DNA of 64,000 nucleotides, from positions 1 through 64,000 of the forward strand of contig CBDUQR010000009.1 in assembly GCA_965369655.1 (NCBI GenBank), in the 5' to 3' direction. Both the position numbers and the translations under genes were made by a program. Below, one piece after another: positions 230-38,870 of this stretch (positions are counted from its first letter, which is position 1; each line of letters opens with the position of its first letter). The notes under the pieces are model-generated. The model was not told the origin of the DNA, did not search any database, and worked only from the letters and a program-made list of their open reading frames with translations. This DNA is from an uncultured bacterium. Lineage in GTDB: Bacteria; Zixibacteria; MSB-5A5; JAABVY01; JAHJOQ01.

Positions 230-404
230 GTCACCCCTCCCTCGGGGATCGGGATCGGCGACCGATGCGGAGGCCCTTCGCTTCCACTCAGGATACACAG
301 GGGTCCAGACAAATCTTTCAAGTCTGTTACACTTACGCATTCTGAATCTGGTTCTGGATTCCCGTGATATCCTGAGCACAGCGAAGGGCCTTCGCGGGAA
401 TGAC
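230..404. repeat. REP-like hairpin doublet interrupted by 27/28-bp and 24-bp micro-modules
   Basis: Removing 238-265 and 275-298 restores GTCACCCCTGCGGAGGCAGGGGTCCA. Removing 364-387 restores TGGATTCCCGCCTTCGCGGGAATGAC. Both are perfect hairpins. Confidence 0.8.
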
Positions 405-432
405 GAGGACTGGTAACTGGCCGGTATGTACT

Positions 433-655
433 GTGGGCGGCAGACGTCTTGAGGCTGTCCCATAAGTAGGTCGTGTTCCGAACCTGATGTAATCAGGTGA
501 GAAACGCGACACCTCTATCTTGTTGACTGACAGTCGGGTTTCTTGCAGGCTACGCCTGCTGCGGAACGCCGACCTACAGGAGAACAGAATTTTTGAGGCA
601 GCCTCTCTTCGTCTGCCCCATCCAGCGTTGACATCGGTGGACATCTGCCGGGCAC
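433..655. repeat. REP-like doublet (GTGGGCGGCAGACGTCyTCGTCTGCCCC family) split by a MITE
   Basis: Reverse complement of the intact copies at 24736-24814 and 38992-39066. Confidence 0.75.
451..605. mobile_element. MITE (155 bp) with GAGGCTGTC-type terminal inverted repeats and a TCTT target duplication
   Basis: Left end GAGGCTGTCCCATAAG, right end TTTTGAGGCAGCCTC, TCTT at 447-450 and 606-609; internal GTAG..CTAC REP doublet at 466-577. Confidence 0.8.
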
Positions 656-677
656 GGAATACCATAACAGGAGTAAT

Positions 678-1322
678 ATGAAGAAAGCTTATATTCTTTT
701 CATTGGCCTGCTGATTCTGATTGTCCTTGCGTTCACATACGCTAAGAGCTACCTGTCGAGGCTCGAATCAGACGACCTGCGAATCAAGACCGAGCTTGGT
801 CGCAGGCAGCTCATCGACAGCCTTCAGCAGACATTTGAGATGATGGCCATCGATCGCACGGGTGATATTCAGCACAGATACGACAGTCTGGTACGTGAGA
901 GCGATGCGCTGATATATGCTTTGGAATCGCAACTCGATCTGTATCTGAATCCTGAATATGATCCGGTGGCTTCGGTCGCTGATCCCGATCCTGAGGGACA
1001 GGAGGATGAACCCAACTCGGTTCGAGCAGATAGCAATGTAGTACTTGCGCCGGACACGTCCAAGTCGCTGACAGTGGATTCGGCAGCATCGATCAAAGAT
1101 GCGTGGGAGAGCGAGATCACTCCCCGAGAGTACGAAGTGTACCTTGCATATCTCGAACGTGTTGTCAGCCTGCCGAAGGATATGACCTCGTATGAAAAGA
1201 AGGTGGCGTATGACGAGGCCGAGAGGAATCTCGCCGCTGAATACTCAGTGACCAAAGACGACATCAGGAAAATCCTGAAGAAGCTGCGAAAGAACAGTAT
1301 CAGGGGACGAAGCAAGAACTGA
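678..1322 (+). CDS. Hypothetical protein with an N-terminal membrane anchor
   Basis: 214-aa ORF, CAGGAG RBS, hydrophobic N-terminus; contains the in-frame 27-bp module at 972-998. Confidence 0.75.
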   Translation: MKKAYILFIGLLILIVLAFTYAKSYLSRLESDDLRIKTELGRRQLIDSLQQTFEMMAIDRTGDIQHRYDSLVRESDALIYALESQLDLYLNPEYDPVASVADPDPEGQEDEPNSVRADSNVVLAPDTSKSLTVDSAASIKDAWESEITPREYEVYLAYLERVVSLPKDMTSYEKKVAYDEAERNLAAEYSVTKDDIRKILKKLRKNSIRGRSKN

Positions 1323-1471
1323 GGCGGAGCGTCGTCTTGTGTGGTGTCAGGGTTGCATTCAATCCTGCTCAGATCAAGCTGATAAGCGCAGTGCGTTATG
1401 CCAGCGCGACGTCGATTAGATGCTGTCGTCATGACTCTGGAGCTTGGGTCATGCGTGCAACGGCGATCTTG

Positions 1472-1660
1472 CTAAGTCGACTGCCGCGAGGAACTCTTGT
1501 GATTCTCGCCGCGGTCGTACGGGATAACAATGTGTTCATCACGAAGAATCTTGTTCACCGTTGTGATGAACTCACGCGGCGGCAGGCTTTGGAGGCGGAA
1601 TGGTATCCAACCCTTCTTGCCGAACCACTCTGACAACGATAACTCGCGTTTGGGAGACAT
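1472..1660 (-). CDS. Small hypothetical protein (62 aa), paralog of 2271-2444
   Basis: AAGGAG RBS 8 nt before the ATG at 1660; core KKGWIPFRLQSLPPREFITTVNKIL. Confidence 0.7.
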   Translation of the reverse strand: MSPKRELSLSEWFGKKGWIPFRLQSLPPREFITTVNKILRDEHIVIPYDRGENHKSSSRQST

Positions 1661-1838
1661 GATGCAATCTCCTTCGAGAGAAATTCCGATCTCCCAGATG
1701 CGGCAGCATTCGCAGATATGTTTTATTCGCAGTACCATCTGTTAGTAAACGATTCATCCTGCTCTTGTCAAGGATTTTGCATGACGGTATTGACTCCGGA
1801 ATCCGAATGCGTTATCCATCATCAGAGGATAACTGACA

Positions 1839-2159
1839 ATGAGCAAAAAGAGTGAACATAAGTTCGCCGAAGTTCAGCTTGAGAAATTGCTTCTCGAAAA
1901 CCTGCCGCAGGAGATGTCCGCATATAGCAGCAGTGCGGACACGGATGACTCGACCGGGAGAGCGTCCGAGAAGTTCAAATCAAGACTGCGTTGGCATATA
2001 TCGCGTTCGCTTTCTCCAAGGCAAAGGGAAGTTCTGACCCTTCTGCTCAAAGGAAAGACCGAAAGGCAAATAGGGGTGATTCTCGGAATCACTCAGCAGG
2101 TCGTTCATATCTATAAGTGGCGTGCAATTCGCAAGTTACAGGAGAAGTTGCTCCGGTGA
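1839..2159 (+). CDS. Stand-alone sigma70 region 4 / LuxR-type HTH protein
   Basis: LSPRQREVLTLLLKGKTERQIGVILGITQQVVHIYKWRAIRKL; GAGG RBS. Confidence 0.8.
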   Translation: MSKKSEHKFAEVQLEKLLLENLPQEMSAYSSSADTDDSTGRASEKFKSRLRWHISRSLSPRQREVLTLLLKGKTERQIGVILGITQQVVHIYKWRAIRKLQEKLLR

Positions 2160-2270
2160 GGTGTATGTCAAACGGCTAATAATGGAAAAGGTTGTTGTAA
2201 CCAGCATGAGACAACACCTCCCTCCCCTTGTCCCTCACCGCCGAAAGACAACTTGGTAAGGAGGTGGGTC

Positions 2271-2444
2271 GTGTTTGGTGTTCGTAAAGACCTTGACTAT
2301 ACAAATGTGACAGATAAGAAGATCTGGCACCCTTTTTCTCTTCAATCGCTCGCCACGAAGGATTTCATCCAGATAGTGAACAAGATTCTTGCCGGAAGGC
2401 ATGGTCTACTGACCTATCGTGACAGGGGCGTCAGGATCATGTAG
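2271..2444 (+). CDS. Small hypothetical protein (57 aa), paralog of 1472-1660
   Basis: AAGGAGGTG RBS before the GTG at 2271; core KKIWHPFSLQSLATKDFIQIVNKIL. Confidence 0.7.
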   Translation: MFGVRKDLDYTNVTDKKIWHPFSLQSLATKDFIQIVNKILAGRHGLLTYRDRGVRIM

Positions 2445-2534
2445 TGTGCGTGATTCGCCGCCGGTTTCTTTAGCTGGTGATATTCGCGATCTACAATGAA
2501 TCTGGCTCATTGGGTGTTGTTCGGCAGTATGTGA

Positions 2535-2733
2535 GAGGTTGTCCCATAAGTGCCAATGAACTTGAGCGGGAAGCTGACTCTGTCGCTCCCGCGGAGGCCC
2601 TTCGCTTTGCTCAGGATATCACGGGAGCCTATTTAACGATAACGCATTCAATAGATTCCCGCCTGCGCGGGAATGACATCGCTTTCTTTCGCAAGCATGA
2701 CCACCAACCTATCAGACCTTATGGGACAGCCTC
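2535..2733. mobile_element. MITE (199 bp), same family as 451-605, with a GTGA target duplication
   Basis: TIRs GAGGTTGTCCCATAAG / CTTATGGGACAGCCTC (15 of 16 complementary); GTGA at 2531-2534 and 2734-2737; internal REP doublet carrying a 24-bp module. Confidence 0.85.
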
Positions 2734-2834
2734 GTGAGTGGCGCAGTTCAATATAGGGCGATACCTGCCGAATACGTATGTAGGACCTGCGGTGCGGCAC
2801 AGTTCCTGAACAGTGTTGTAACTCTAAGTTTGAG

Positions 2835-2862
2835 TTGACATTTAAGCAATGTTGGGTATATT
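2835..2862 (+). promoter_or_regulatory. Putative sigma70 promoter
   Basis: TTGACA-N16-TATATT upstream of the 2913 ORF. Confidence 0.5.
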
Positions 2863-2912
2863 AATATCTGAGTCTTGCTTGAGTAGATGTAAGTATTCAC
2901 ATTGGTGCAATC

Positions 2913-4622
2913 GTGATTGATCACGCCCTCAATGAATCTGGCAAATGCCGCGTGGCATGTTTGCTTTGTGTCATTCTGGTTATTGGTCTCCCAGTACACG
3001 CATTGGAGATGGACCAGCCGAGCCTGATCCATGATGCGTATGCGGACGGCAGGCTCGACCGGGAAGGGCATTACCGCTGTCTGATGCAGTCGATTCTCGA
3101 TCCGGAGAACTTACCAGTCGAGTTCGCAACTGATGTTCCGCACAAGTGTGGCACTCATGTTCTGCTTGAGATCGAATCGAATCTTGGTACACTCTCGACC
3201 GAGATGCAGGAGTTGTTTGCAACCCTTGATGTTCGTCCTGAAGCCGAGTGCGAGTATGTATCACCCGACTCATTCTTCAAGCTCCACTATGACACCGCGT
3301 CCGGACAGGCGACGCCGCCTGTGCCGATCGAGGATCTCGATTCGAGCGGGATTCCTGATTTTATCGAGAATATGGCACTCTATGCCGATTCGGCATGGAG
3401 ACAGATCGTGCAGAACTTTGGACATCACAGGCCACCGTCCGACGGCACTCTCGGCGGCGACAGTTTGTACGACATCTACTTCAAGCAGTTCCAGTACTAC
3501 GGTATTACAAATGGAGACAACGAGGGACCGGAGCCGTGGGATGACTACTCATCGCACATAGTTCTTCACAATTCATTTGATATATTTCCACCAAACCAGG
3601 ACCCCGAGGGGAACCAGAAGGGATCGATGAAGGTCGCTATCGCCCATGAGCTATACCATGCCGTACAGTTCTACTATGACGCGTTTATCGATACATGGTG
3701 GATGGAGCAGACCGCTGTCTGGATGGAAGACGAGGTCTACCCGGGGATTCATGATAACTATAACTACTTCGATGATTTCTGGCCGTCACCCGAGATGTCG
3801 CTCTTTGAGGAAGATATTATCAGGCACATGTATGGTTCGTTCGTCTGGCCCAGGCACCTCACTGAAGTCCACGGCGATCTCCTGATCAAGGAGATACTCG
3901 AAGGCATGGCTACGCCGACATCCTCACTGATGAATGTCATTGTAGATGTGTTTGACCTGTACGGGACGACGTTCGATGACGAATTCAGGAGATTTCTGTT
4001 CTGGAATTACATGACCGGCAGTCGAGACGACGGGCATCACTATGTCGATGCCGCAGATTATCCCGAGATCGCGATTGAGCACAGTTATGACAGTCTGCCT
4101 GCGTTGCAGATATCAAGTTTTTCAGCCCCGTACAATCGTGGTTCAAACTACATCGAAGTCTACAACGACTCATCATATATTGGCATTCTCGCGTTTGGCA
4201 TTGATACGGCATACTCGGCTCCCTGGTCGCTGTCGTATATCACAGTAGATACGGCGGGTGTGTATGACTTCTTGTTCAGGAACCTGAGCGGCGGTGGAGA
4301 GGGCAAGACCTACGTCGGACCGTTCCAGGAATACGACAAAGTTGTGTTCATTCCGCACGCTAAAGGTCTGTCGATGAACGGGCCGTATGGATTCGTGTAC
4401 AGCGTCTACTTCAGACCCATCGGCGATGCCGACGCATCTGAGAATATCGACATCGATGATGTCATCTGGATTATCAACTATATCTTCAGCGGCGGACCGC
4501 CTTCGGAACCGTATGTAGCAATGGATGCCGACTGTTCCGGCAATGTCGACATCGATGACGTCGTTTATCTCATATCATATATATTCTCGGCGGGTCCTCA
4601 GCCGTGCGGCGAAGGATTCTGA
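2913..4622 (+). CDS. Secreted zinc metalloprotease (MXAN_6640-like) with C-terminal dockerin repeats
   Basis: Signal peptide, FKLHYD..VP.EDLDSSGIPD, HELYH zinc motif, two EF-hand-like repeats (GDADASENIDIDD / DADCSGNVDIDD). Confidence 0.8.
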   Translation: MIDHALNESGKCRVACLLCVILVIGLPVHALEMDQPSLIHDAYADGRLDREGHYRCLMQSILDPENLPVEFATDVPHKCGTHVLLEIESNLGTLSTEMQELFATLDVRPEAECEYVSPDSFFKLHYDTASGQATPPVPIEDLDSSGIPDFIENMALYADSAWRQIVQNFGHHRPPSDGTLGGDSLYDIYFKQFQYYGITNGDNEGPEPWDDYSSHIVLHNSFDIFPPNQDPEGNQKGSMKVAIAHELYHAVQFYYDAFIDTWWMEQTAVWMEDEVYPGIHDNYNYFDDFWPSPEMSLFEEDIIRHMYGSFVWPRHLTEVHGDLLIKEILEGMATPTSSLMNVIVDVFDLYGTTFDDEFRRFLFWNYMTGSRDDGHHYVDAADYPEIAIEHSYDSLPALQISSFSAPYNRGSNYIEVYNDSSYIGILAFGIDTAYSAPWSLSYITVDTAGVYDFLFRNLSGGGEGKTYVGPFQEYDKVVFIPHAKGLSMNGPYGFVYSVYFRPIGDADASENIDIDDVIWIINYIFSGGPPSEPYVAMDADCSGNVDIDDVVYLISYIFSAGPQPCGEGF

Positions 4623-4673
4623 TCGGAGTTTTCGTCTCAGCAGCCATGCCACCGGAGTTTAGCATAACGCAGT

Positions 4674-5254
4674 GTGGCAATCGGAATAGTGTCTGTCATC
4701 CTGCTCCTCTCGACCATCAGCATGTCTTCAGCAAGTGAACTGAACTCTCTGGATCTGATCGAGTTGGCGTATGAGAGCGGTCGAATTTCAGAGGGTGAGC
4801 GGATCGTCTATCGCCGATGACAGTCCGCGATCTCGACACCCTGCCAGCGCAATACCGCAGCGATACATCTCTGATCGGAAAGTGTGCAACCGAGATATTC
4901 CTTGATGCCGCGGAGAACTTCGAATTGCTTACGCTTGAGCAACAGCGTGTGGCGAAGGACTACATGGCTCGACCATCGCGGGCATACTCACACGATTCCC
5001 CCGACGGGCATTTCAAAATCCACTACGATGAAACCGGCACACACGCCGTGCCGTCGGCAGACGACAACGGCAACGGCGTCCCGGATTTCGTAGAATGGCT
5101 CGCGGATTATGCGGATTCGTCGTGGAGATGTATCCATGATAATCTCAGCTACGATCTGCCGCCCGTGGATGGCGGCGCTGGAGGCGATGACAAGTACGAC
5201 ATAAAAGTACCGTTGGATCGAGATGCCGGGTTGCTCCGGCCTCTTTTTTGTTGA
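4674..5254 (+). pseudogene. Frameshifted and truncated paralog of the 2913-4622 metalloprotease
   Basis: Frame 1 VAIGIVSVILLL..LIELAYESGRISEGERIVYRR* shifts near 4815 to MTVRDLDTLP..HFKIHYDETGTHAVPSADDNGNGVPDF; homology ends at KYDI, before any HEXXH. Confidence 0.75.
5225..5250 (+). terminator. Rho-independent terminator-like hairpin
   Basis: GCCGGG-TTGC-TCCGGC followed by CTCTTTTTTG. Confidence 0.55.
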
Positions 5255-5477
5255 CTGAAGTCTTTGTCGTATTATCAATTACGGCAGGATGGGACCATAG
5301 AAGTTGTCCCATATAGAGAGTTTCGCTGGGTCTTGTCGACGACTGGGTCGGCAGTGTGGCTTGGCGATCACTTTCTAACTGTTGCCTGACACGGATTCCA
5401 TTAGCCGGCAGTTCACACGCCTGCCTTCCGCAGCGCATGAACCGCCGGAACGGATAATTACGGCAGGATGGAACCCT

Positions 5478-7193
5478 ATGACTGACGAACATATCGGCAA
5501 GTACAAGATACTTGAGAAGCGTGGCGAAGGTGGCTTCGGAGTCCTCTACAAGGCTCTCGATGCCATGATTGACCGCGTCGTGGCCCTGAAGGTCCTTCAT
5601 CCCGAATACGCGGCAAGCGAGAGACTGGCGAATTGGTTCAAGCGTGAGGCACGGGCAATGGCGCGTTTGAACCACCCGAACATTGTCACTATCCACAATT
5701 TCGAGGTCGAGGATGACCGGCACTTCATTGTGATGGAGTACGTCGATGGCGTCGACCTCGATTCGGTCATCAAGACTCGTGGCAAGCTCCCGATCGATGA
5801 GATACTCGGGCTGATGTCCCAAATGCTGAGCGCCTTCGGTTACGCACACTCCAGCGGTATCGTCCACAGAGATATCAAACCGTCGAACATCATGATAGAC
5901 ACGTCTGGGCGGGTCAAGATTACCGATTTCGGGATCGCGAAGATACTTGACGACTCGAAAATGACCAAGACAGGCATGGGAGCGGGGAGCCTGCACTACA
6001 TGTCCCCTGAGCAGGTCGAGGGCAAGCTCATCGACACGCGCACCGACATCTACTCGCTCGGAATCACGCTGTATCAGATGATTACCGGCAATGTGCCGTT
6101 CACGGATGATTCGGACTATATCGTCATGCGTGCTCACCTCGATCAGACGCCGGATAAGCCGTCGGATCTCAGGCAGGATGTGCCGCCCGATCTCGAACGC
6201 GTCGTTATGAAAATGCTCGAGAAGAAACCGGAAGATCGTTACGAGAGCATGAGCGCTGTCGCGGATGATCTTGGAGAGCTGGGGGGAAAAGAATTCGTGG
6301 CCTCCGCAGCTGTGAGCGGGAGCCCCGCGGACATTAGGACAAGAACTGTCTCGACTCCCAAGCCTCGCTATACGCCTCCTGATCGTCGTGAATCGAGCGA
6401 TGGAGAGAAAAGCGCTGGGTGGAGACGATTCCTGATTCCGGCCGGCGCAGCGGCAGCGCTGATAGTCACCACAGTCGTGGTGTTACTGTTTGTGTTTGGA
6501 GGGGATTCAACCGAAACAGATGAACCGGTTGTGTCGGATACGACGAGTGTCGCAGTTGTCGACACGATTGAGGTGTTAGCTGAGTCGGACAAACCGTCGG
6601 ACACTGCGATGGTTGCCGTTACCGAACAAGAGCCGATCGATACGGCGGAGGCTCTCACCTCCGTGGACCAGTCATCCGACTCGATTCCGACGACGTCCGA
6701 CATTATCACTCCTTCCGAAGAGGACTTGCCCGGCGGCAGGCTCCTTGTGGAGATAGCTCCGTTTGATTATCGCAATCCGCCCAGGGTTGTGCTCGACGGC
6801 AGGGAATTCAGCGTTGACGACATTCCGTTGGAGATCACCGGTATCAAGACGGGCTGGCATCAACTCTCGGTTCACTTTGCCGGGGAGAGCTTTTTCGAGA
6901 GCGTGTACGTCGACCGTGATATAAAGACGAAGACGTACCGTTTTAACGGACCGGTGGGCAGAGTCTCGATCGGCGCAGAGTTTATCGGTATGCAGCAGAG
7001 GCAGCCATGGGCGAAGATAATTGTCGACGAGAAGCCGATTGAACAGGGCACTCCAACAGCTATTGAGCTTGTCGAGGGGCCGCACAAGATCATGGTGAAG
7101 AAGAAAGATTTCGTGACTGTTGGGAAAGCGAAGTTCATCTACGTTAAAGCAGGCGAGAATACAGTCGTGAATTTCAAGCTGAGAAGGAAGTAA
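5478..7193 (+). CDS. Hanks-type Ser/Thr protein kinase with a TM helix and extracytoplasmic PEGA-like domain(s)
   Basis: GEGGFG, VALK, HRDIKPSN, DFG and YMSPE motifs; TM segment LIPAGAAAALIVTTVVVLLFVF; PEGA-like C-terminus. Confidence 0.9.
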   Translation: MTDEHIGKYKILEKRGEGGFGVLYKALDAMIDRVVALKVLHPEYAASERLANWFKREARAMARLNHPNIVTIHNFEVEDDRHFIVMEYVDGVDLDSVIKTRGKLPIDEILGLMSQMLSAFGYAHSSGIVHRDIKPSNIMIDTSGRVKITDFGIAKILDDSKMTKTGMGAGSLHYMSPEQVEGKLIDTRTDIYSLGITLYQMITGNVPFTDDSDYIVMRAHLDQTPDKPSDLRQDVPPDLERVVMKMLEKKPEDRYESMSAVADDLGELGGKEFVASAAVSGSPADIRTRTVSTPKPRYTPPDRRESSDGEKSAGWRRFLIPAGAAAALIVTTVVVLLFVFGGDSTETDEPVVSDTTSVAVVDTIEVLAESDKPSDTAMVAVTEQEPIDTAEALTSVDQSSDSIPTTSDIITPSEEDLPGGRLLVEIAPFDYRNPPRVVLDGREFSVDDIPLEITGIKTGWHQLSVHFAGESFFESVYVDRDIKTKTYRFNGPVGRVSIGAEFIGMQQRQPWAKIIVDEKPIEQGTPTAIELVEGPHKIMVKKKDFVTVGKAKFIYVKAGENTVVNFKLRRK

Positions 7194-7290
7194 CTGGTGC
7201 TCGGCTCACGGAACCAGGATTTTTATGTTGCTTCGCTGATTGAACATATCTTAAATATTCAGCCAAGGGTTATAGTATGGAGGGTCAACC

Positions 7291-8316
7291 ATGAGAAAGC
7301 TCTATGCAGCGGTTCTCGTCACGCTGGTCTGTATCAGTTGCAGTGCCGTTAATGTCTATGCACAGTCCGGAGTCGATGCCGAACTCGATGATGCGTACAG
7401 GCTATACAGGAAAGCGCAGTTCGAGGACGCCATCATTCTAACGACAGGGTTGCTGACCGGGACGGGCGTTTCCGAGGATCAGGAAGTCAGGGCTCTCCAG
7501 ATTTTGAGTCTTGCGTCGGTCGGTCGCGGTTACGTAGATCAGGCCCGCGACTACCTCGAGCGCCTGGTCACACTCAGCCCCACCATTGAACTTGATCCTG
7601 ATGAGTTTCCGCCCCAGATCATGACACTCTGGTATCGAGTGCGCGAGGGCAATCCGCCGCCCGCTGCCGCATCGGAGCAGAAGGACAAGCTCGAAACCAT
7701 CGCGGTGATGTATTTCGACAACAACTCGATCGTCGATCACGACAAACTGAACGCGCTCTCCAAAGGACTCGCTTCGATGATGATTTATGAAATCAGCAAG
7801 GTTTCGAAGCTGCGTGTGGTCGAACGGGACCGCATCAATTTCCTCGTGGATGAGCTTAAGCTTCAGCAGAGCGACCTTGTCGACAAGAGCACTGCTGTGA
7901 GGATCGGCAAGCTCGTGGGGGCTCACACATTGCTGATGGGCGGATTTATGAAACTGTCGAAGAACCAGTTCCGCATCGATGCGCGACTCGTGAAGGTTGA
8001 GACGGGTGAGATTATCAACGCTGAGTTTGTCGAGGGCAAACCGAGTGACGTAGTCGAACTCGAAAAACAACTTGTGATGAAAATGCTCGAAGGTCTTGAT
8101 GCCGGCGCCACCGAGAGTGAAAAGAAAGACATCATGAGGGGTCGCGACACGAGTTTCGATGCGCTTTATCACTACTCGCGCGGGCTGGCTTTCGAGGACA
8201 AGAAGGAATACACGGCCGCGTTCCAGCAGTATCAGGAGGCGCTCAAGCTGGCGCCCGGATATGTCGAGGCGCAGAAGAAAATGTTTCGCCTGGAACCGCT
8301 GGCCAGCCAGGGATGA
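7291..8316 (+). CDS. Exported TPR + CsgG/HfaB/FlgO-like protein
   Basis: TIAVMYFDN..LRVVERDRINFLVDEL..AVRIGKLVGA..IDARLVKVETGEI; TPR-like helices at both ends. Confidence 0.8.
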   Translation: MRKLYAAVLVTLVCISCSAVNVYAQSGVDAELDDAYRLYRKAQFEDAIILTTGLLTGTGVSEDQEVRALQILSLASVGRGYVDQARDYLERLVTLSPTIELDPDEFPPQIMTLWYRVREGNPPPAAASEQKDKLETIAVMYFDNNSIVDHDKLNALSKGLASMMIYEISKVSKLRVVERDRINFLVDELKLQQSDLVDKSTAVRIGKLVGAHTLLMGGFMKLSKNQFRIDARLVKVETGEIINAEFVEGKPSDVVELEKQLVMKMLEGLDAGATESEKKDIMRGRDTSFDALYHYSRGLAFEDKKEYTAAFQQYQEALKLAPGYVEAQKKMFRLEPLASQG

Positions 8317-8325
8317 GGTAGTCTA

Positions 8326-9636: not shown

Positions 9637-9651
9637 TCGTAGATTTCGATT

Positions 9652-10788
9652 ATGTGTAGCGCTCAAAAACTGATCCTGATGATCGTTCTGGTCTCTTCTA
9701 TACTGACCAGCCACGCCGTATCGCAGGTGAATTACGGCGAACCGCCGTCGATCTCCTCACGGCTGGTCTATCAGACATGGAGCGTGAAGAGCACTTCGGG
9801 CGCGGAGTATGATCTCGTTCAGTGGTACTTCCCGGTTCATGGCTACTTGCCGATCGCAGAGGATTGGGAGATACATGTCACGACTGCGAGTGCGGGAACC
9901 GACAGTGATTCCTCCGGAAACGAAGTTTCTATCACCGGACTCAATGACACTCGAATTTCGGCGCTGCATTCACTGTTCGACAAGTCGCTGCTTGTCGGAA
10001 TTGGGCTGAATCTTCCAACCGGTAAGACAAAACTCGATCCTGAGCAAACGGCTCTTGGGCGATTACTGACTGCTGAGTTTCTCGATCTTCCCGCAAAACG
10101 ATACGGTGAGGGCTTCGGAGTCTATTTCGAAGGGGCCTTCGCACGCCGAATCCATGGTTTTCTGACTGGCGTCGCGATGGGTTACCTTGCGAGCACATCA
10201 TATTCACCGGTGTCGGACGTCGACGACTACAACGCCGGAAACAGACTCACCATATCTGGAAACCTGATGCGCAGTCATTCCTATGGCAGGGCGTACGTGT
10301 ACATCAGACACAACATCTATGGAACCAGTACACAGAACGGTTTTGACGTCCATAAGACAGGTTCGATTACCGAACTCGCGGGTGGTTCGTCGGTGGAAAT
10401 CGACAAGTTCGAGGCAAATGGCGGGCTGCGGCTGCTATTGCGTCGGGCTGATTCAAGGCTTGTTTCCGGCGAACTAAGAAAATTCGAGCAGAATAACTAC
10501 GGCAGCGATTTCCGATTCTTTTCAATTCTCGGTTATCGCATGGAGGATATCGGCAAGGCGTCAATACTGATCGACTACAAGAAAGTCGCGGCGAACCGAT
10601 TCGAGCCGGGCGATGAGGAATACCTGGGCGAATCGAGCCTGTTTGGTATAGGCATTCAGTTTGAGCGCGTGATCGGAGGGCGATACATGCTGGGAGCGAG
10701 CGTCAAGGCGCATTCGGGCTCTGCGGATGACAACAATCTCGATCTTTCCGGCTACGAGGTCTCCCTGATGGCGAGGGCTGCACTATGA
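9652..10788 (+). CDS. Putative outer-membrane beta-barrel protein
   Basis: Signal peptide, alternating amphipathic strands, GIGLNLPTG motif. Confidence 0.65.
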   Translation: MCSAQKLILMIVLVSSILTSHAVSQVNYGEPPSISSRLVYQTWSVKSTSGAEYDLVQWYFPVHGYLPIAEDWEIHVTTASAGTDSDSSGNEVSITGLNDTRISALHSLFDKSLLVGIGLNLPTGKTKLDPEQTALGRLLTAEFLDLPAKRYGEGFGVYFEGAFARRIHGFLTGVAMGYLASTSYSPVSDVDDYNAGNRLTISGNLMRSHSYGRAYVYIRHNIYGTSTQNGFDVHKTGSITELAGGSSVEIDKFEANGGLRLLLRRADSRLVSGELRKFEQNNYGSDFRFFSILGYRMEDIGKASILIDYKKVAANRFEPGDEEYLGESSLFGIGIQFERVIGGRYMLGASVKAHSGSADDNNLDLSGYEVSLMARAAL

Positions 10789-26588: not shown

Positions 26589-26600
26589 GGTTATCCGGCG

Positions 26601-31529: not shown

Positions 31530-31545
31530 TTGCGTTATTAATATT

Positions 31546-34338
31546 ATGAGGCGTTACTTCGTTCGCTTGAACATATTCGCTCTGCTTGCCTTCCTCGCAC
31601 TGAGTTCGAGCGCTGCCGGGCAATTCTATTTTGGCAAGAACAAGGTCCAGTATTCTCATCTCGACTGGTATGTCCTGCGGACTGAGCACTTCAATATCTA
31701 TTACTACAAAGACGAGAACAATCTGGCGGAGATGGCGGCTCACAGCATCGAGGAGAGCTACAGACTTCTCGAGACCAGGTTCGACATGCCGCTTACGCGA
31801 CGAGTCCCGTTGATTATCTACAGCTCTCCGAACTACTTCGATCAGACCAACGTGATACCGCAGTTGCTGCCGGAAAATGTGGCAGGATTTACGGAGTTCT
31901 TCAAAGGCCGGATGGTAGTTCCTTTCGATGGATCGTACCACGAGTTCGACAGAGTGTTAAGACATGAGTTGGTGCATGTGTTCATGTACGCAAAGATGTC
32001 CCGGATCGCCAGGGATCACAAGAAGATCAAGCAGTATTCGCCACCGCTTTGGTTCACCGAGGGTATCGCAGAGTACTGGTCAGGCGAATGGAATTCCAGT
32101 GGAGATATGGTCGTCTCGGATGCCGTTCTTTCCGGCAGAATGTTCGACGAGATCAGCATCCACAGCATATCAGGCAGTTACCTGATGTACAAGCTGGGGG
32201 AGTCGATGCTTCATTACATGTCCGAGGAGTATGGCGAGGACAAAATACTGATCCTCTTCGAAAACTGGTGGAAATTCGGCTCGTTCAGGGATGTTGTCCA
32301 TTACACATTCGGCGTGCCCCTCAAGGAGATATTTGCGGGCTGGCAGTATAATCTCAGGAAGAAATACTTCCCGACGATTGTCGACACTGAGATGCCGGAT
32401 CGTACCGCAGACGTTCTGACGCAAGAGGGATTCTCGGTTAAGCCGCATCTCGTAAGGCTGAATCTCGACGACGAGTCGGACGAGGACTATCTGATCTATA
32501 AGGCGAACAAGCTCGGGTATTCCGGCATCTATCTGCAGGAAATGAATGGGAGCAATAAGACTCGCGCGCTGATAAAAGGTGAGCGGTCGCCCAAGTTTGA
32601 ATCGCTGCATCTGCTGGAGTCGGATATTTCTGTGAATGGTCGTTCACAGCTTGCGTTTGCTTCTCGGCACTACGAGCGCGATGTACTCTATATCTACGAT
32701 CTAAGAGAAAGAAGAATCGAGAGAAAACTCGATTTCGAGAAGATTGTGGTGCTGCAATCGCCGGCCTGGTCGCCTGACGGCAGTCGAATTGTTTTCACAG
32801 GCGCCAGGAAAGATGGACAGTACGACCTGTATGTATTCAATCTTGCCGAAGACTCGCTGACCCAACTTACTGACGACATATACTGGGATTCCGACGCTGA
32901 ATTCGCTCCCGACGGTCGATCGCTGGTATTTGCATCCGACAGGACAACAGATGGAGACGAAGGCCCCCACAATCTTTTCACGCTCGACCTGAACAGCGGC
33001 GAACTGAACCAGTTGACATGGGGACCGCATCGCGACGGTACGCCATCCTATTCCAGTGATGGGCGATGGATTCTGTTTCGCTCGACACGGCACGGCGTCC
33101 CGAATATGTACGTCCTCGACAGCCTGGGAAATCTCTACAGGGTCGGCAGCTTCTCCGCAGGCATTTTAGATCCGTCATTTGGTCCCGACGACGACAGACT
33201 GATCTTCTCTGCGTACGAGAAGGGCGGGATCAGGGCTTACTCTATCGCGTTCGACGATTCCCTGCTCGTACCGATGGAAAATGAGCCGACCGAACATGTC
33301 GCCTGGGTGCCGCGAATGATCTCTGGCAGAAAGACCGAAGCCAACTACAGCTACAGTAACGAATTCTCGTTTGACGTCGCGCAGTCAGCCGTCGCATACG
33401 ATGCCTTCTATGGTTCCGTCGGTGGGTTCCAGGTGGCATACTCCGATATCCTCGGAAACCATCAGTATTATTTCCTGCTCTACAACAACTCTACCGTCAG
33501 GAGTGACTTTCTGTCGTCGTTCAATGTCGGCCTGACCTACATCAATCGCGAAGGCCGAATAAATGTCGGTGGTGGCGTGTTCCATCTTTTCGACGAGTAC
33601 TACAACAGACAGGATGGGTATTTCGACGAACGACAGTTCGGTGGGTTGTTCCTTGTCAGCTACCCGTTTTCGAGATTCCGGCGAGTAGAACTGACGTCTG
33701 TGTTCAGGAAGTCGGAGCGTAACTTCTTCCTGTTCGATTCCACTCGTCACGCTATTCTCTCGACGAATTTCATATCCTATGTCAAGGATAACAGCCTCTG
33801 GGACATAACAGGTCCGCTCGACGGCACCAGGTACAATGTGACGCTCGGCCTCACTTACGATATCAGGACGGGGCGGAGCTTCGCCCAAATAGCATCTGTC
33901 GATTTTCGCAAATACATACGTCTCGGCCGCTCGTCCGCATTCGCAAGCCGCATTTTCGGATTCGCCTCGACCGGCGAGGAACCGCAACGGCTTTATCTCG
34001 GAGGAAGCTGGTCGATGCGAGGCTACGACCGACGCGAGTTCTACGGTCGCAAGGTCGCCCTCTGGTCGAACGAACTTCGTTTCCCGCTGATAGACAATCT
34101 CTACATAGGTTTCCCGCTTGCGAAGATCGGATTCTCCGGCATCAGGGGAGCGATTTTCTGGGATACGGGGAATGCCTGGGACGATGAATTCGATCGCTTT
34201 TTCGGCTCGGTCGGTTTCGGAGCGAGAGTCGCGCTTGGCTACATGGCTGTGCTCCGTTTCGATCTCGCCAGGCCGACAGACTACCGCAAGTTTGCTGAGA
34301 ACTGGGACTTCGATTTCTTCTTCGGATGGAATTTCTGA
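31546..34338 (+). CDS. Omp85/BamA-TamA family barrel fused to peptidase-MA-like and PD40 propeller domains
   Basis: FGKNKVQY, HELVH..WFTEGIAEY, PAWSPDG repeats, SMRGY, ELRFPL, terminal FFFGWNF. Confidence 0.88.
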   Translation: MRRYFVRLNIFALLAFLALSSSAAGQFYFGKNKVQYSHLDWYVLRTEHFNIYYYKDENNLAEMAAHSIEESYRLLETRFDMPLTRRVPLIIYSSPNYFDQTNVIPQLLPENVAGFTEFFKGRMVVPFDGSYHEFDRVLRHELVHVFMYAKMSRIARDHKKIKQYSPPLWFTEGIAEYWSGEWNSSGDMVVSDAVLSGRMFDEISIHSISGSYLMYKLGESMLHYMSEEYGEDKILILFENWWKFGSFRDVVHYTFGVPLKEIFAGWQYNLRKKYFPTIVDTEMPDRTADVLTQEGFSVKPHLVRLNLDDESDEDYLIYKANKLGYSGIYLQEMNGSNKTRALIKGERSPKFESLHLLESDISVNGRSQLAFASRHYERDVLYIYDLRERRIERKLDFEKIVVLQSPAWSPDGSRIVFTGARKDGQYDLYVFNLAEDSLTQLTDDIYWDSDAEFAPDGRSLVFASDRTTDGDEGPHNLFTLDLNSGELNQLTWGPHRDGTPSYSSDGRWILFRSTRHGVPNMYVLDSLGNLYRVGSFSAGILDPSFGPDDDRLIFSAYEKGGIRAYSIAFDDSLLVPMENEPTEHVAWVPRMISGRKTEANYSYSNEFSFDVAQSAVAYDAFYGSVGGFQVAYSDILGNHQYYFLLYNNSTVRSDFLSSFNVGLTYINREGRINVGGGVFHLFDEYYNRQDGYFDERQFGGLFLVSYPFSRFRRVELTSVFRKSERNFFLFDSTRHAILSTNFISYVKDNSLWDITGPLDGTRYNVTLGLTYDIRTGRSFAQIASVDFRKYIRLGRSSAFASRIFGFASTGEEPQRLYLGGSWSMRGYDRREFYGRKVALWSNELRFPLIDNLYIGFPLAKIGFSGIRGAIFWDTGNAWDDEFDRFFGSVGFGARVALGYMAVLRFDLARPTDYRKFAENWDFDFFFGWNF

Positions 34339-35525
34339 TGCGACCGACTCACAGATACATTTCGCTGGCGCTTGTTGTGATTGGTCTCTTACCTGTCATA
34401 GCAGGTTGTTCCGGCAGACTTGTTCGCGTGAAAGACTTCAAGTACAGCCCTCACGGATGGGATATGTTCCGGAATTCGACCGACGGCTGCGCTGTGAACG
34501 CATCTCTTCGTGATGTAAACACGCTCCTGTGGAGCAGGAAACTGAAAGCTCGCGTCTACGCGACGCCTGTCGTCAACAATGGCCTCGGCGTGATTCCGGG
34601 CCTCGATAAGAAAATCTACCTGTTCAATCCCGATAATGGCAAAGGCATCGGAAGGATCAAGACAAAATCGTCGTCATCGTCATCGCCCGCGATCTGTGAG
34701 AATCTGCTGTACATCGCATCGGAGAAAGACGACGGAAGGCTCAGGTGCATCAATCTGACCAACGGCCTGCTGGTTTGGGAGCGAAAGCTCGGCGATCTCT
34801 CCGCGCCGCTGATTCTCCATGACATGTCGCTGCTGGTCGGAAACTACGAAGGCGAGTTCTACTCGATCAACAGGTTTACCGGCGAAACGGAATGGAGTTA
34901 CTCGACTGACGGTCCCATCAAAGGCGGAGCCGCTGCTCTCGATGGCAAAGTGTTGATCGGGTCAGCCGATGGAAAGCTCTACTGCTTTGACTCCGCGACC
35001 GGTGATCTCTACTGGAGCTTCGAGACCGAGGGCGCAATTTTCTCCTCGCCTGCAATGGATGCCACCGCATGCTACGTGACATCGTTTGGCGGAGTCATGC
35101 ATGCGGTTGACCTCGCATCGGGACAGGAGCTTTGGAGCTATGAGACATCGGCCAATGTCTTCGGCTCTCCCGTTATCGATCAATCAGCAGTCTACTTCGG
35201 CGCCAACGATGGCGGATTCTACGCCCTCTCCAAGCTTGACGGCTCACTGATCTGGACTTATCAGACCGAGACCATAATCAGTTCCACGCCGCTTGTCGGG
35301 CGGGATGCGGTCCTGTTCGGAGCCGGTGATGGTATGGTCTATGTGCTGGATAAAGTCGACGGCAGCAAGCTGTTCGAGTACCAGACCGGCTCGCGCATCA
35401 AGTCTTCGCCTGCCCTTTATGACGGCAAAGTGTATGTCGTCACCACTGAGAAAAAACTCTTTTGCTTTGGAAGTCAACCGAAGGTTGCCGATAACAGAGC
35501 CACTTCTGCCAATTCTGCTGAATAA
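34338..35525 (+). CDS. PQQ-like beta-propeller lipoprotein (BamB-like)
   Basis: Lipobox IAGC; repeated SSP..V..G..DG.LY..D..TG...W motifs. Confidence 0.85.
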   Translation: MRPTHRYISLALVVIGLLPVIAGCSGRLVRVKDFKYSPHGWDMFRNSTDGCAVNASLRDVNTLLWSRKLKARVYATPVVNNGLGVIPGLDKKIYLFNPDNGKGIGRIKTKSSSSSSPAICENLLYIASEKDDGRLRCINLTNGLLVWERKLGDLSAPLILHDMSLLVGNYEGEFYSINRFTGETEWSYSTDGPIKGGAAALDGKVLIGSADGKLYCFDSATGDLYWSFETEGAIFSSPAMDATACYVTSFGGVMHAVDLASGQELWSYETSANVFGSPVIDQSAVYFGANDGGFYALSKLDGSLIWTYQTETIISSTPLVGRDAVLFGAGDGMVYVLDKVDGSKLFEYQTGSRIKSSPALYDGKVYVVTTEKKLFCFGSQPKVADNRATSANSAE

Positions 35526-35661
35526 GCGCCATTCTGACACCTGTTAATGCTATTATAGCGGTATTGCAGCCATAATGGCGCATGTGTCAAGTGATCCATC
35601 GGGACATCAAAAAAGACTTATGTCAGTGTGTTGCAGTGCGTTATGTGTATTATGCGGCTTT

Positions 35662-35677
35662 TGGCACGACTTATGCA
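35662..35677 (+). promoter_or_regulatory. Putative sigma54 promoter upstream of hsp20
   Basis: TGGCACGACTTATGCA, GG-N10-GC. Confidence 0.7.
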
Positions 35678-35742
35678 ATATACCTCCGCGAAATGACGAT
35701 AGAACTCGAAATAAAACGCTTTGATTACAGGAGGTAAGTAAG

Positions 35743-36192
35743 ATGACTTTAACAATCAGCAGACCCAGACGGAGCTTCATCCCGGTACTCGACGAGATGG
35801 ACAAGATGATCGATCGGATGTTCAGGGACAGCTACGACAGCAGGGACGAGAGTTCCAGCTGGATGCCGCCGGTTGACATTGTCGAGAACAAGGACGAGAT
35901 CATGGTCAGGGCCGATGTGCCCGGACTGGAAAAAGACAATTTCAAGGTCTCGGTCGAGGACAGTGTCCTGACGATTTCCGGCGAGAAGAAAGTCGAGTAC
36001 GACGAGAAAGACAAGGAGAACAGTTTCCATCGCAGCGAGCGAGTTTATGGATCTTTCTCTCGGTCGTTCACTTTGCCGAACAATGTAGACACCGGGAGCG
36101 TCAAGGCAAAGTATCGTAACGGCGTGCTCCAGGTGGCGATATCCAAGCTCGAAGAGAGCAAGCCGAAACAGATCGATATCGATGTCAGCTAA
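35743..36192 (+). CDS. Small heat-shock protein (Hsp20/alpha-crystallin)
   Basis: WMPPVDIVE..ADVPG..ERVYGSFSRSFTLP..AKYRNGVL. Confidence 0.95.
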   Translation: MTLTISRPRRSFIPVLDEMDKMIDRMFRDSYDSRDESSSWMPPVDIVENKDEIMVRADVPGLEKDNFKVSVEDSVLTISGEKKVEYDEKDKENSFHRSERVYGSFSRSFTLPNNVDTGSVKAKYRNGVLQVAISKLEESKPKQIDIDVS

Positions 36193-36314
36193 GACAGGCT
36201 GACTCAGGTATGCCCCGAGCGGAAGATCACGAAGCGGCCCGCCCACGAAATCGGGGCGGGCATGCTGTATGTTATTGAAAAAGCGAGCAGTGTTTGCTCG
36301 ATAGGAAGGTGAAT

Positions 36315-36911
36315 ATGATTAATGATGATAATGATCCTACCAACAACAGCGTGCAATATCAAGGATTTCTTGTGACTACTGTAGCTGGTGTTGACATTAG
36401 CACGAAGTACAAAGAGTACGATGGGCGATTTGTGTCCAATGCACAAGGTTTTGACCCAAGTCCACCACATGATGTACAAGAAAGTAGTTCTCATGTTGAA
36501 CCCAGCGACGTATGGAATAGCAGCGTAATAGTGTATCACTACGATACAAGTTCATTTGAACTTCTTGGTGAAAGGGAGTTTGTTACTGCGTTTCAGCAAA
36601 ATCCTTCAATGTTCAATCACGCTGTGGTATCAGGAGTGTATGTAGAAACAACACGTCCACTAATTGACGATGATTCTGAAAAGGGAAGTCAAGTAGGTTT
36701 CGGTTTACTGGATAAGCTTCGCCGTATAGGTGCTTGGATAGCACCAGTAGTTCTGATTCTCGTTGGAGTTGATTTGATTCCCGATCCAAAACACCCTATG
36801 ACATTTCTCGATTATCCTGAGTTTCAAGCAGTACACGAAAGATATGAACTTGATCCACATGTAGAAATATCGTCGGCCAATGGTACATCTGGTCTATCAA
36901 GGGAGACCTGA
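36315..36911 (+). CDS. Hypothetical protein, AT-richer than its neighbours
   Basis: Open 198-aa frame with a GGAAGGTG RBS; no recognisable motif. Confidence 0.5.
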   Translation: MINDDNDPTNNSVQYQGFLVTTVAGVDISTKYKEYDGRFVSNAQGFDPSPPHDVQESSSHVEPSDVWNSSVIVYHYDTSSFELLGEREFVTAFQQNPSMFNHAVVSGVYVETTRPLIDDDSEKGSQVGFGLLDKLRRIGAWIAPVVLILVGVDLIPDPKHPMTFLDYPEFQAVHERYELDPHVEISSANGTSGLSRET

Positions 36912-36947
36912 GAATATTAACCGAAGCTAAAGGATTGGAGGGCAGGC

Positions 36948-38870
36948 ATGTCTAACAAGAATAACATTGTAATCGGCATAGACCTTGGGACGACTAACTC
37001 ATGCGTTGCGGTAATGGAAGGTGGCGATCCGGTCGTGATCCAGAACAGCGAAGGCGCTCGCACCACGCCCTCGGTGGTCGGATTCAGCAAGACCGGCGAA
37101 CGGCTTGTGGGGCAGATCGCCAAGCGGCAAGCTGTCACGAATCCCAGGAACACAGTATCCTCAGTCAAGCGATTCATGGGTCGCAAGTACAACGAGGTGA
37201 CCGAAGAGATCAAGAACTACCCATTCAAGGTCATCGAGGGGAAAAACGGCGCTGTCAGCATCTCGATTGAAGGAAAAGAATACGCGCCGCCCGAAATCTC
37301 CGCGATAGTGCTTCAGAAGATGAAGAAGACCGCTGAGGATTATCTCGGTCACAAGGTAACCGATGCGGTTATCACTGTGCCGGCTTATTTCAACGACTCG
37401 CAGCGTCAGGCGACGAAGGATGCCGGCAGGATTGCCGGTCTCGATGTCAAGCGGATCATCAACGAACCGACCGCTGCCTCGCTTGCATACGGTCTCAACA
37501 AGAAAAAAGAAGGCAGGATCGCGGTCTACGATCTCGGCGGTGGGACATTCGACATTTCGATCCTCGAAATCGGCGATGGCGTGATCGAGGTCCTCTCGAC
37601 CAACGGCGACACGCATCTCGGCGGCGATGATTTTGACAAGAGGATTATCGACTGGCTCGTTGACGAGTTCAGGAAAGAGCAGGGGATCGATCTGTCGAAA
37701 GATCCGATGGCTCTCCAGCGTCTGAAAGAAGCGGCGGAAAAAGCTAAGATGGAACTCTCAACGACGGTCGAGACAAACATCAACCTGCCGTTTGTCACAG
37801 CCGATCAGGGCGGACCGAAACATCTGAATCTGACGCTGACGCGTGCGAGATTCGAGCAGATGGTCGATGACCTTATCGACCGTGCGATCAAACCATGCGA
37901 AAGCGCGCTGAAAGACGCCGGAATCGCTGCGAGCGAAATCGGCGAGGTCGTGCTGGTTGGTGGCATGACTCGTATGCCGAAAGTGGTCGAGTCGGTGAAG
38001 AAGTTCTTCGGCAAGGAGCCGCACAAGGGTGTGAATCCTGATGAAGTTGTCGCTCTCGGCGCGGCGATCCAGGGCGGAGTGATGTCAGGTGACGTCAAAG
38101 ACATCCTGCTGCTCGATGTGACGCCGTTGTCGCTCGGAATCGAGACGCTCGGCAACGTCACTACCAGGTTGATCGAGCGCAACACGACTATCCCGACAAA
38201 GAAGTCGGAGATATTTTCGACCGCGGCTGACAATCAGACGACGGTAGAGGTTCATGTCCTTCAGGGTGAGCGCGAGATGGCTATCGATAACAAGACTATC
38301 GGACGTTTCCATCTTGATGGAATTCCACCTGCACCTCGCGGGATGCCGCAGATCGAGGTCACGTTTGATATCGATGCAAACGGGATTCTGAATGTCTCTG
38401 CGAAGGATCTCGCGACAGGTAAGGAACAGAAGATACGGATCGAGGCGTCGTCCGGAATGTCCGAGCAGGATATCGAGAAGATGGTCAATGACGCGAAAGT
38501 GAACGAAGCTGCGGACAAGAAGCGTCGTCAGGAAGTCGATACTCGAAACCGCGCTGATCAGCTTGTCTTCGAGACCGAGAAAAATCTCGAAAGCTATAAG
38601 GATCAGATCAATCCCGACACGAAAGCGAAGATCGAAGCTGCTGTCGGTCGTGTGAAGCAGGCACTCGAAGGTACGAACACATCAGAGATCGAATCTGCGG
38701 CAGAAGATCTGAAGCAGCAATGGCACGAGGCGTCATCACAGATGTATCAGCAGGCGAACGCCCAGTCGGTCGCCGATCCCGATCTTGAGGGACAGGCATC
38801 TCAGCCGGGCGGCGCAGCCGGTGGTGATGGCGAGACGGTCGATGCCGATTACGAAGTCGTCAACGATTGA
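36948..38870 (+). CDS. dnaK: Chaperone DnaK
   Basis: [25 protein letters not shown], terminal VDADYEVV. Confidence 0.98.

Follow-up and report, generated by a model that had tools for sequence, protein, structure and literature searches.

Mobile DNA below the size of a miniature inverted-repeat transposable element (MITE) is almost undocumented outside one cyanobacterial family, and the mechanism of its movement has never been solved. That family, the Nostocaceae, carries small dispersed repeats (SDRs), which Elhai et al. reportedly described in 2008 as very small mobile repeated elements of about 21–27 nt; their mobility is said to have been inferred from presence or absence at given sites and from nesting in other repeats. 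Here, we describe a nonpalindromic unit of 27–28 nt found in a 64,000-nt stretch of DNA from an uncultured marine sediment bacterium, with copies in frame in dnaK and in a second gene. The stretch (hereafter the window) is contig C9:1–64000 of a draft genome, G000 (2.99 Mb, 100 contigs, 51.8% G+C), and the run labels give a marine sediment metagenome as the source. With a probability of roughly 0.9, we regard the unit as a mobile insertion element and its copies as a recently expanded, strain- or species-specific family of nonautonomous micro mobile elements. It is one of the smallest mobile DNA elements described.

Of the kinds already described, the SDR is the nearest and the one that the element most resembles, a comparison made by description only. 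The likeness lies in a size of about 21–27 nt, far below that of MITEs, in nesting within other repeats, and in a preferred short insertion site. Further features in common are a unit of 20–30 nt in many copies, the lack of coding capacity, and presence or absence at orthologous sites. In the relevant passages of two papers, small dispersed repeats are some 20 bp long and possibly mobile (PMC2884548), and SDR5 inserts at the highly iterated palindrome HIP1, with no SDR found outside the Nostocaceae (PMC5861425). The host is thus one difference, as these passages place SDRs in cyanobacteria. Others are the one-sided NAGG target of our element, its modular long forms, and its in-frame copies in seven intact genes including dnaK.

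HUH/Y1 transposition, as in IS200/IS605 and IS91, gives exact ends without duplication and recognizes a tetranucleotide on one side. IS200/IS605-type elements need subterminal hairpins at both ends and measure at least about 100 nt. Our element resembles them in lacking a duplication, in the tetranucleotide on one side, in its strand-specific behavior, and in a genome that encodes Y1 homologues, but the 27-mer has no such hairpins and its targets show no guide–target covariation. The BOX repeats of pneumococcus and the bacterial interspersed mosaic elements (BIMEs) of Escherichia coli are modular mosaic repeats that are intergenic and much longer, and to our knowledge neither inserts as a 27-nt unit into genes. 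With BOX and BIME (the latter named in a passage of PMC2884548) the element shares a fixed head and tail around variable internal modules; here, it is tails and a GATCCC hexamer that vary in copy number.

Repetitive extragenic palindromic (REP) sequences and their hairpin-forming doublets (REPINs) are given in passages of two papers as 20–40 bp long and associated with REP-associated tyrosine transposases (RAYTs) (PMC3116915, PMC3733652), and the second of these passages adds that REPs lie in frame inside open reading frames (ORFs) in some species and end in the tetranucleotide GTAG or CGTC (PMC3733652). Like them, our element is short, high in copy number, lineage-specific, and free of target duplication, and its genome encodes RAYTs. 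It differs in having neither palindrome nor end tag, in flanking none of the five RAYT genes, and in living as a guest within REPs. Rickettsia palindromic elements (RPEs), described in part of one paper as about 150 bp and in frame in genes (PMC10969869), likewise occur in many unrelated genes, to which they add a conserved peptide without destroying the protein. An analogy with RPEs, drawn in a first-pass annotation made from the letters of the window, is apt for this in-frame behavior alone; the unit here is 27 nt, is not a palindrome of about 100–150 bp, and lies mostly outside genes. Our literature search found no report of a nonpalindromic unit of 27 nt that has a one-sided NAGG target and occurs in genes like dnaK, which is not proof that none exists.

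Results

Size, structure, and distribution of the family

The first-pass annotation had reported two 27-nt copies and a minus-strand 28-nt variant in the window (Table 1) and had proposed an ultra-short mobile unit. Both 27-mers are where it placed them, agree at 25 of 27 nt, begin on a codon boundary, are followed by CAGG, and encode the nine residues claimed; a search for the 27-mer pattern in 100 dinucleotide shuffles of the window gave 0 matches. The 28-nt variant is likewise there, as the reverse complement of TCGGTCGCCGATCCCGATCCCCGAGGGA. Its excision had been said to restore a perfect REP hairpin if a 24-bp module went with it. Removal of the 28-mer alone restores the host repeat CCTCCGCA^GGGGTGAC, and a separate 24-bp module was not identified at the locus. 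That the element might be confined to these copies, an outcome that would have spoken against mobility, is contradicted by the genome: the 16-nt head, TCGGTCGCYGATCCCG, occurs exactly 70 times in G000 (34 forward, 36 reverse).

The same exact head has 0 occurrences in each of the 40 relatives that formed the comparison set, including G001, a genome of the same genus that is 94% complete. With copies located genome-wide by blastn-short and seed scans and parsed from head to tail, the family comprises 76 nonoverlapping elements on 40 of the 100 contigs, or about 25 per Mb. This count is a lower bound: 14 of the 76 elements are no more than 400 nt from a contig end, indicating that the repeats break the assembly. 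Outside the genome and its relatives, a scan of a one-genome-per-species collection with a 20-mer returned 18 single matches in unrelated GC-rich taxa, which we read as chance, and no multicopy genome. Two scans of metagenome collections, with the short form and with the head of the long form, gave 0 matches, as did Rfam within the window. The tail-to-head junction, the signature of a circle or tandem array, yielded one match, inside an unrelated gene, which was rejected as chance.

The basic unit consists of the 16-nt head followed by an 11–12-nt tail, ATCC(C)YGAGGGA, and every form of the element has the same head and the tail (G)ATCC(C)YGAGGGA. There are 20 copies of 27 nt, 26 copies of 28 nt, and 30 modular copies of 39–105 nt, the latter comprising six each of 72 and 73 nt, three each of 46 and 51 nt, two of 55 nt, and single copies of 39, 52, 54, 75, 78, 81, 88, 90, 97, and 105 nt. 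Divergence is low, with mean pairwise mismatches of 1.46 among the 27-mers and 0.95 among the 28-mers. The longer forms contain GATC-anchored internal modules, tail duplications, or a second nested element. The modules TCATTGACCCCGATCTT, TCCTYYTGGACCCCGATC, and CTCCCTCCGGGATCCCGTGGGAGAG occur 21, 7, and 15 times inside elements and 0, 0, and 1 times outside, the lone exception being at a contig end. Extra GATCCC hexamers are found on contigs C38 (four units, 39 nt) and C16 (one, 22 nt), and a complete second element is nested within the first at C15 10082–10159, at C9 73019–73115, and on C17 and C67. GATC, the anchor around which the element and its modules are built, is itself twice as frequent in G000 as expected from base composition (23,045 observed versus about 11,640).

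Terminal inverted repeats are absent, the start of the head, TCGGTCGC, being unrelated to the reverse complement of the tail, TCCCTCRG. Nor does the element carry a GTAG or CGTC end tag, as it begins with TCGG and ends with GGGA; GTAG is present in one host repeat (window 466–475). Because it is not palindromic and has no terminal inverted repeats, the element is neither a REP nor a MITE. The description "in a REP" in the first-pass annotation is therefore right in that copies are nested as guests in several older REP families and wrong if taken to mean that the element is itself REP-like.

Presence and absence of the dnaK copy among strains

Contigs from four public runs (X1–X4, two studies) were aligned to window positions 38000–38900. 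Those of X1 and X2, which may be the samples that the genome came from, match the window and contain the 27-nt insert. A 351-nt contig from X3, another sample of the same study, spans 38604–38900 with 5 mismatches and lacks exactly 27 nt after 38765. It has zero mismatches over 38597–38804, and its empty allele reads ...CCCAG^CAGGC.... A 296-nt contig from X4, which belongs to the different study, spans 38526–38818 with 5 mismatches and no gap, the insert being present. The X3 and X4 observations come from single contigs of low depth (4.96 and 3.18), and the strain picture that they give agrees with the comparison among relatives described below. As the empty allele of X3 already carries CAGG, the dnaK flank was the target sequence and was not imported with the insert.

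Insertion sites, host repeats, and target flank

Most copies sit at fixed points within older REP-type repeat families, and many of these host sites also exist empty in the genome as an exact join of both flanks. The insertions have no target-site duplication, the empty form being a precise join at many host-repeat sites, in dnaK, and in four other genes. Empty copies in the genome number 29 for ATTCCCGCG^AAGGCGGGA, 22 for GTCGGGTTT^CTTGCAGGC, 13 for CGTCATCAC^GAGGAGCGA, 11 for TGAGCTTCG^AAGGATCTG, and 9 for GCCTCCGCA^GGGGTGACG, the host of the copy at 238–265; counted as CCTCCGCA^GGGGTGAC, the last family has 10 empty and four filled copies. The empty site TCGGGTTT^CTTGCARGC is found 32 times in G000 and 23 times in G001, always empty in the latter. 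Because G001 thus has the host repeat and zero elements, this host must be older than its guest. The GTAG-tagged host repeat of the window, empty at both of its sites, has filled counterparts at, for example, C53 11115, C41, C6 34190, and C31; the 22 exact empty joins given above belong to the second of its sites (541/542).

At the loop site of the CATTGCGAGCGACCG family, 8 copies are empty and 8 are filled with the element. In a ninth, on the minus strand of C8 (element-oriented position 49720), the loop position that the element occupies in the CATTGCGAGCGACCG^NAGGGAGCG repeat holds an unrelated 21-nt insert, ACAAGTCCTGAGCCTCGAAGG, in turn a fragment from a different repeat family. Loops of REPs in G000 seem to be hot spots for insertion generally. 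Three copies (C7 68605, one on C17, and C2 39226) have chimeric flanks, with the left half from one host family and the right half from a second, and we read these as products of recombination between copies. Together with the self-nesting noted above (e.g. at C15 10082–10159 and C9 73019–73115), they indicate that insertion and recombination have continued.

A flank logo was built from 50 unique sites, defined by 6 + 6 nt of flanking sequence. On the 3′ side, +1 is C at 32 sites, +2 is A at 34, +3 is G at 35, and +4 is G at 49; on the 5′ side, the only clear feature is a depletion of G at −2 (1 of 50 sites). Self-nested copies follow the same 3′ rule. The element has inserted precisely and directly 5′ of NAGG, mostly CAGG, without duplication and with a filter of selection in genes, a description in which we have high confidence.

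Further copies lie near or within open frames on other contigs. Upstream of a lipoprotein gene (MSNKLLAILW...VSFGC) is a 27-nt copy at C46:18516–18542 that stops 6 nt short of the ATG, with the GAGGGA tail at the position expected for the ribosome-binding site. At C33:10159–12055, a peroxiredoxin gene lies in a 1,083-bp tandem duplication (99% identical) with a 28-nt copy of the element about 200 nt upstream of each gene copy. Both gene copies have an in-frame TGA at the expected active-site cysteine (FTFV*PTE), which suggests, from the reading frame, a selenocysteine peroxiredoxin. At C6 about 42390–42416, a 616-codon open frame runs from a complete S-adenosylmethionine (SAM)-methyltransferase-like part through a REP and the micro-element, read on the opposite strand as VPRDRDQRPK, into a second protein-like part without a stop; either gene fusion mediated by the repeat or the loss of a stop codon could account for it.

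Copies inside genes

Seven intact genes contain a copy (Table 1), and in all of them the copy is 27 nt long and in the orientation of the gene. The encoded residues were compared with relatives for six of these genes, all but the 134-aa ORF on C47, which by eye we take to be like an IS3-type OrfA. In 6 of 6, the nine residues correspond to a clean gap in relatives: DnaK in 4 of 4 aligned relatives, the DinG-like helicase in 4 of 4, and the AIR-carboxylase-family, DUF6504-like, and membrane proteins each in 5 of 5. The 214-aa protein, which has homologues in 5 of 5 family genomes, lacks the residues in four of them (G001, G002, G003, and G005), and in the fifth, G004, unrelated residues occupy the same variable linker. 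At the DNA level, alignment with G001 gives a single 27-nt gap in dnaK and in the genes for the 214-aa protein, the helicase, and the DUF6504-like protein; for the AIR-carboxylase-like gene the alignment is ambiguous at the stop codon, and the membrane protein DNA is too diverged to align. All of the insertion points are termini or variable linkers.

These results bear out several expectations of the first-pass annotation: that the unit would occupy flexible or terminal regions of unrelated proteins without shifting the frame, that DnaK and the protein encoded from position 678 would show a clean nine-residue gap against relatives, and that orthologues would differ by a presence/absence indel rather than by a diverged SVADPD-like stretch. 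The expectation of one and the same nine-residue tag holds for six of the seven genes, which read SVADPDPEG or similar, and fails for the membrane protein on C17, which is read in another frame. The idea that the length of the unit is intrinsically a multiple of three has to be abandoned, as most short copies (26 of 46) measure 28 nt and modular forms of 46–105 nt exist as well.

Length is instead constrained where the element lies in a gene. Four copies (72, 72, 72, and 78 nt) occur in transposase ORFs and were set apart from the seven intact genes. Three of them (C5 87057, C13 15880, and C2 39011) were considered as intact in-frame cases and rejected because they are transposase remnants that run into other repeats after the element; the fourth, C15 10082, is in an IS1182-like transposase ORF. 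An 81-nt copy in a broken IS3-type ORF (C49 1224–1304) was counted with the 65 copies found elsewhere. All 7 intact-gene copies and all 4 in transposase ORFs have a length divisible by three, compared with 25 of 65 elsewhere (Fisher p = 0.002 for the intact genes against elsewhere and 1e-4 with the transposase ORFs included). The contrast of 7 of 7 with 25 of 65 points to a selection filter on gene copies and not to a property of the family. No paralogous empty copies of the transposase-gene sites, which might have shown whether +1/+2 was imported, were found in the genome; short "empty" matches for C47 and C2 39011 were dismissed as chance.

Orientation and frame are more uniform than the target alone would give. 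Of the [ACG]AGG occurrences in 1,467 long ORFs, 34% are in codon phase 0 of the sense strand, and 63% are on that strand when all phases are counted. Because 6 of the 7 gene copies share one frame and 7 of 7 are in the sense orientation, purifying selection on the peptide, or a strand bias of insertion, is needed in addition to target preference. The peptide of the favored frame is acidic and proline-rich, and the CTGAGGGA variant has a TGA in one of the other five frames. We infer that selection tolerates the copies in genes as passengers and that they do not serve as functional tags.

A 75-nt form at C10 14642–14716 is probably an eighth gene case, the G001 orthologue being cut by a contig end. 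It follows the last conserved residues of a 275-aa ORF that, by its sequence, looks like the β subunit of a 2-oxoacid:ferredoxin oxidoreductase, adds 24 residues, and supplies the stop codon through a change of GAGGGA to GAGTGA.

Table 1. Element copies, their host genes, and host repeats (window positions unless a contig is named)
Feature	Position	Strand	Remarks
28-nt variant TCGGTCGCCGATCCCGATCCCCGAGGGA (tail ATCCCCGAGGGA)	238–265	−	Nested in repeat family CCTCCGCA^GGGGTGAC
Host flanks of the 28-nt variant	266–273 and 230–237		
Empty GTAG-tagged host repeat	486–550	+	Two sites, both element-filled elsewhere
Empty site GATGTAAT^CAGGTGAG	493/494		In repeat 486–550
Empty site TCGGGTTT^CTTGCAGGC	541/542		In repeat 486–550
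Host gene 1, 214 aa, unknown function	678–1322	+	N-terminal membrane helix, no Pfam family; copy in variable linker
27-nt copy TCGGTCGCTGATCCCGATCCTGAGGGA	972–998	+	In ORF 678–1322; EYDPVA / SVADPDPEG / QEDEPNS
CAGG 3′ flank	999–1002	+	Preferred target flank
Host gene 2, dnaK, 640 aa	36948–38870	+	67–83% identity to full-length relatives
27-nt copy TCGGTCGCCGATCCCGATCTTGAGGGA	38766–38792	+	Disordered C-terminal tail of DnaK; QQANAQ / SVADPDLEG / QASQPGG
CAGG 3′ flank of dnaK copy	38793–38796	+	Present also in the strain without insert
Empty host repeat CATTGCGAGCGACCG^TAGGGAGCGTGGCAATCT	38953–38985	+	Site 38967/38968; about 170 nt downstream of dnaK copy
Copy in 919-aa DinG-like helicase (Pfam DEAD, DEAD_2, Helicase_C_2)	C10 7872–7898		IDSIF / SVADPDPEG / QERGP
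Copy in AIR-carboxylase-family (LarB-like) protein	C27 26582–26608		RILGLL / PVADPDPKG / KERL*
Copy in 91-aa protein	C19 6181–6207		Subthreshold DUF6504 match (20.4 bits, cut-off 24.2); MYQEI / SVADPDPEG / EESIDV
Copy in 758-aa membrane protein	C17 52096–52122		Other frame; KLATG / RSRIPIPRE / WKFY
Copy in 134-aa ORF	C47 8067–8093		No Pfam or NCBIfam family

At least four repeat families form a dense cluster in the first 3 kb of the window, and more REP-type repeats (CCTGAGCACAGCGAAGGGCCTTCGCGGGAATGACG and relatives) lie at 360–410 and 2560–2640. Nearby, at 2913–4622, the ORF listing alone gives a 569-aa protein with two dockerin-like repeats at its end (DADASENIDIDDVIWIINYIFSGGP and DADCSGNVDIDDVVYLISYIFSAGP).

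Discussion

The exact ends of the element, the lack of duplication, and the tetranucleotide recognized on one side make single-strand transposition of the HUH/Y1 type our leading guess for how it moves. In its specific form, which ascribes the movement to a RAYT, we hold this guess tentatively and at rather less than even odds. A trans-acting enzyme would move the unit as a single strand, making no duplication and recognizing the tetranucleotide from one side.

The most likely candidate for the enzyme would be one of the five RAYTs of G000. The first-pass annotation had suggested looking for a RAYT or TnpA(Y1) gene, and five proteins do score above the NCBIfam cut-off for REP-associated tyrosine transposase, one at C9:68523–68822, just outside the window, and the others on C23, C31, C37, and C76. 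The RAYT domain on C23 (20496–20732) lies inside a 1,072-codon open frame whose neighboring stretches look like translated repeats (GFQ.VNHGQD..TTST on both sides). Because none of the five genes is flanked by the element and RAYT-like genes are also present in 12 relatives that lack it, the RAYT link is offered as a hypothesis only.

A number of observations weigh against repeated insertion by such an enzyme, and we collect them here. None of the five RAYT genes has the element within 200–250 nt on either side, where other hairpin repeats are found instead, and neither an autonomous copy nor a gene flanked by the element was found in the genome. RAYT-like genes occur in 13 of 13 genomes searched, namely G000 and 12 relatives, the 12 without the element. 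Hairpins are a requirement of known Y1 substrates. Folding of the 27- and 28-nt units gives −2.9 to −4.3 kcal/mol and z scores of −0.37 to +0.52 against 200 shuffles, none of them significant, and the long forms have one moderate hairpin that is weakly better than shuffles (z −0.6 to −1.4). Relative to local GC skew, the strands of the copies divide 48:26; this bias is weak, the copies are not independent, and the contigs give a noisy skew. In the CATTGCGAGCGACCG^NAGGGAGCG family, moreover, +1 is C in 8 of 8 filled copies and A, G, or T in 8 of 8 empty ones. This pattern suggests a better fit to hitch-hiking or gene conversion than to repeated independent insertion. Part of the copy number is due to riding along with host repeats, and far fewer than 76 insertion events were truly independent.

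DNA-guided targeting was considered as an alternative form of target recognition and set aside. The tail bases before AGGGA can pair with CAGG, over 5 bp at 4 of 50 sites including the copy at 972. Pairing stems average 1.16, against 0.35 for random flanks and 1.09 when the flanks are permuted among the sites (p = 0.31). As tail variants thus show no covariation with the flank, the guide-pairing model is not supported.

It is possible, if on balance doubtful, that no transposase is involved. Copies would then spread by short-patch gene conversion within REP families and reach new sites when a single-stranded copy together with its usual 3′ flank anneals through CAGG microhomology at a replication gap and is sealed in, such that the apparent target preference would be the donor's own 3′ flank. 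The consensus CAGG is indeed the flank that the commonest donors have. The CATTGCGAGCGACCG^NAGGGAGCG family also speaks for this, in that its filled copies, all with C at +1 (0 of 8 among the empty ones), fall into at least two downstream sub-contexts. The data suggest that the element has spread within this one host family by hitch-hiking or short-patch gene conversion. The chimeric flanks, if they are recombination between copies, and the failure to find a cognate transposase in the genome point in the same direction. Microhomology alone, however, does not explain the exact 5′ boundary at every site. The empty dnaK allele of X3 already reads CAGG, and families flanked by GGGG, CTTG, or AAGG retain their own flank.

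Another source of a transposase would be a larger autonomous insertion sequence that is missing from the assembly, with the 27–28-mers as its "solo ends," derived by internal deletion. The longer forms with the same head and tail recall the way in which MITEs derive from insertion sequences, and the proximity of many elements to contig ends is consistent with an insertion sequence that failed to assemble. Yet every head is followed by the tail or by one of two short modules within 105 nt, no head runs into coding sequence, and the internal modules are confined to elements (with the one exception at a contig end). The lack of terminal inverted repeats and target-site duplication adds to this, and no related longer element turned up in the two metagenome scans or the genome-collection scan. 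We consider this origin quite improbable.

Far less probable still is that selection has favored the nine residues as a functional peptide (a tag or motif), with nucleotide identity secondary. The 6 of 7 gene copies in the same frame and orientation, which [ACG]AGG offers in only 34% of cases, would be accounted for. About 65 of the 76 copies are noncoding, however, many of them 28 nt, and one gene is read in another frame. Identity reaches synonymous positions, a strain (X3) lacks the dnaK copy, and the insertion points are termini or variable linkers. That the sequence is ancestral and was lost from relatives, or is an assembly artefact, a formal possibility alone for a 100-contig draft genome, can practically be dismissed, as the same 27 nt occur in six unrelated genes, each time absent from 4–5 relatives, and the dnaK region, with the insert or lacking it, is recovered in independent assemblies of four runs that come from two studies.

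A recently inserted mobile element thus remains our preferred reading, and it provides a clean case, in which a recent burst has left the same sites as empty and as filled alleles, in a single genome as well as among near-identical strains. Given the one-sided NAGG target, a modular ladder of forms, and five candidate Y1 transposases, the mover of very small repeats becomes testable by oligonucleotide biochemistry. The family also shows selection acting as a sieve, as only copies that are 27 nt, in the sense orientation, and in a linker or at a terminus survive in genes. DnaK, a helicase, and other conserved proteins offer a natural example of insertions of nine identical residues. There is also a warning for annotation: where a conserved protein from a metagenome-assembled genome has a short "low-complexity" insert, a repeat insertion can be the cause.

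A bolder interpretation, which we think unlikely, is that the 27–28-nt unit is a complete and self-sufficient insertion substrate. It would be the smallest mobile DNA known, nonpalindromic and pasted as a single strand 5′ of NAGG, either by a RAYT-type Y1 enzyme acting on non-REP cargo or by enzyme-independent incorporation of an oligonucleotide at the replication fork. If true, this would be a mode of DNA mobility not yet demonstrated, and bacteria would be able to gain, on the time scale of strains, one and the same nine-residue insert in DnaK and other essential proteins.

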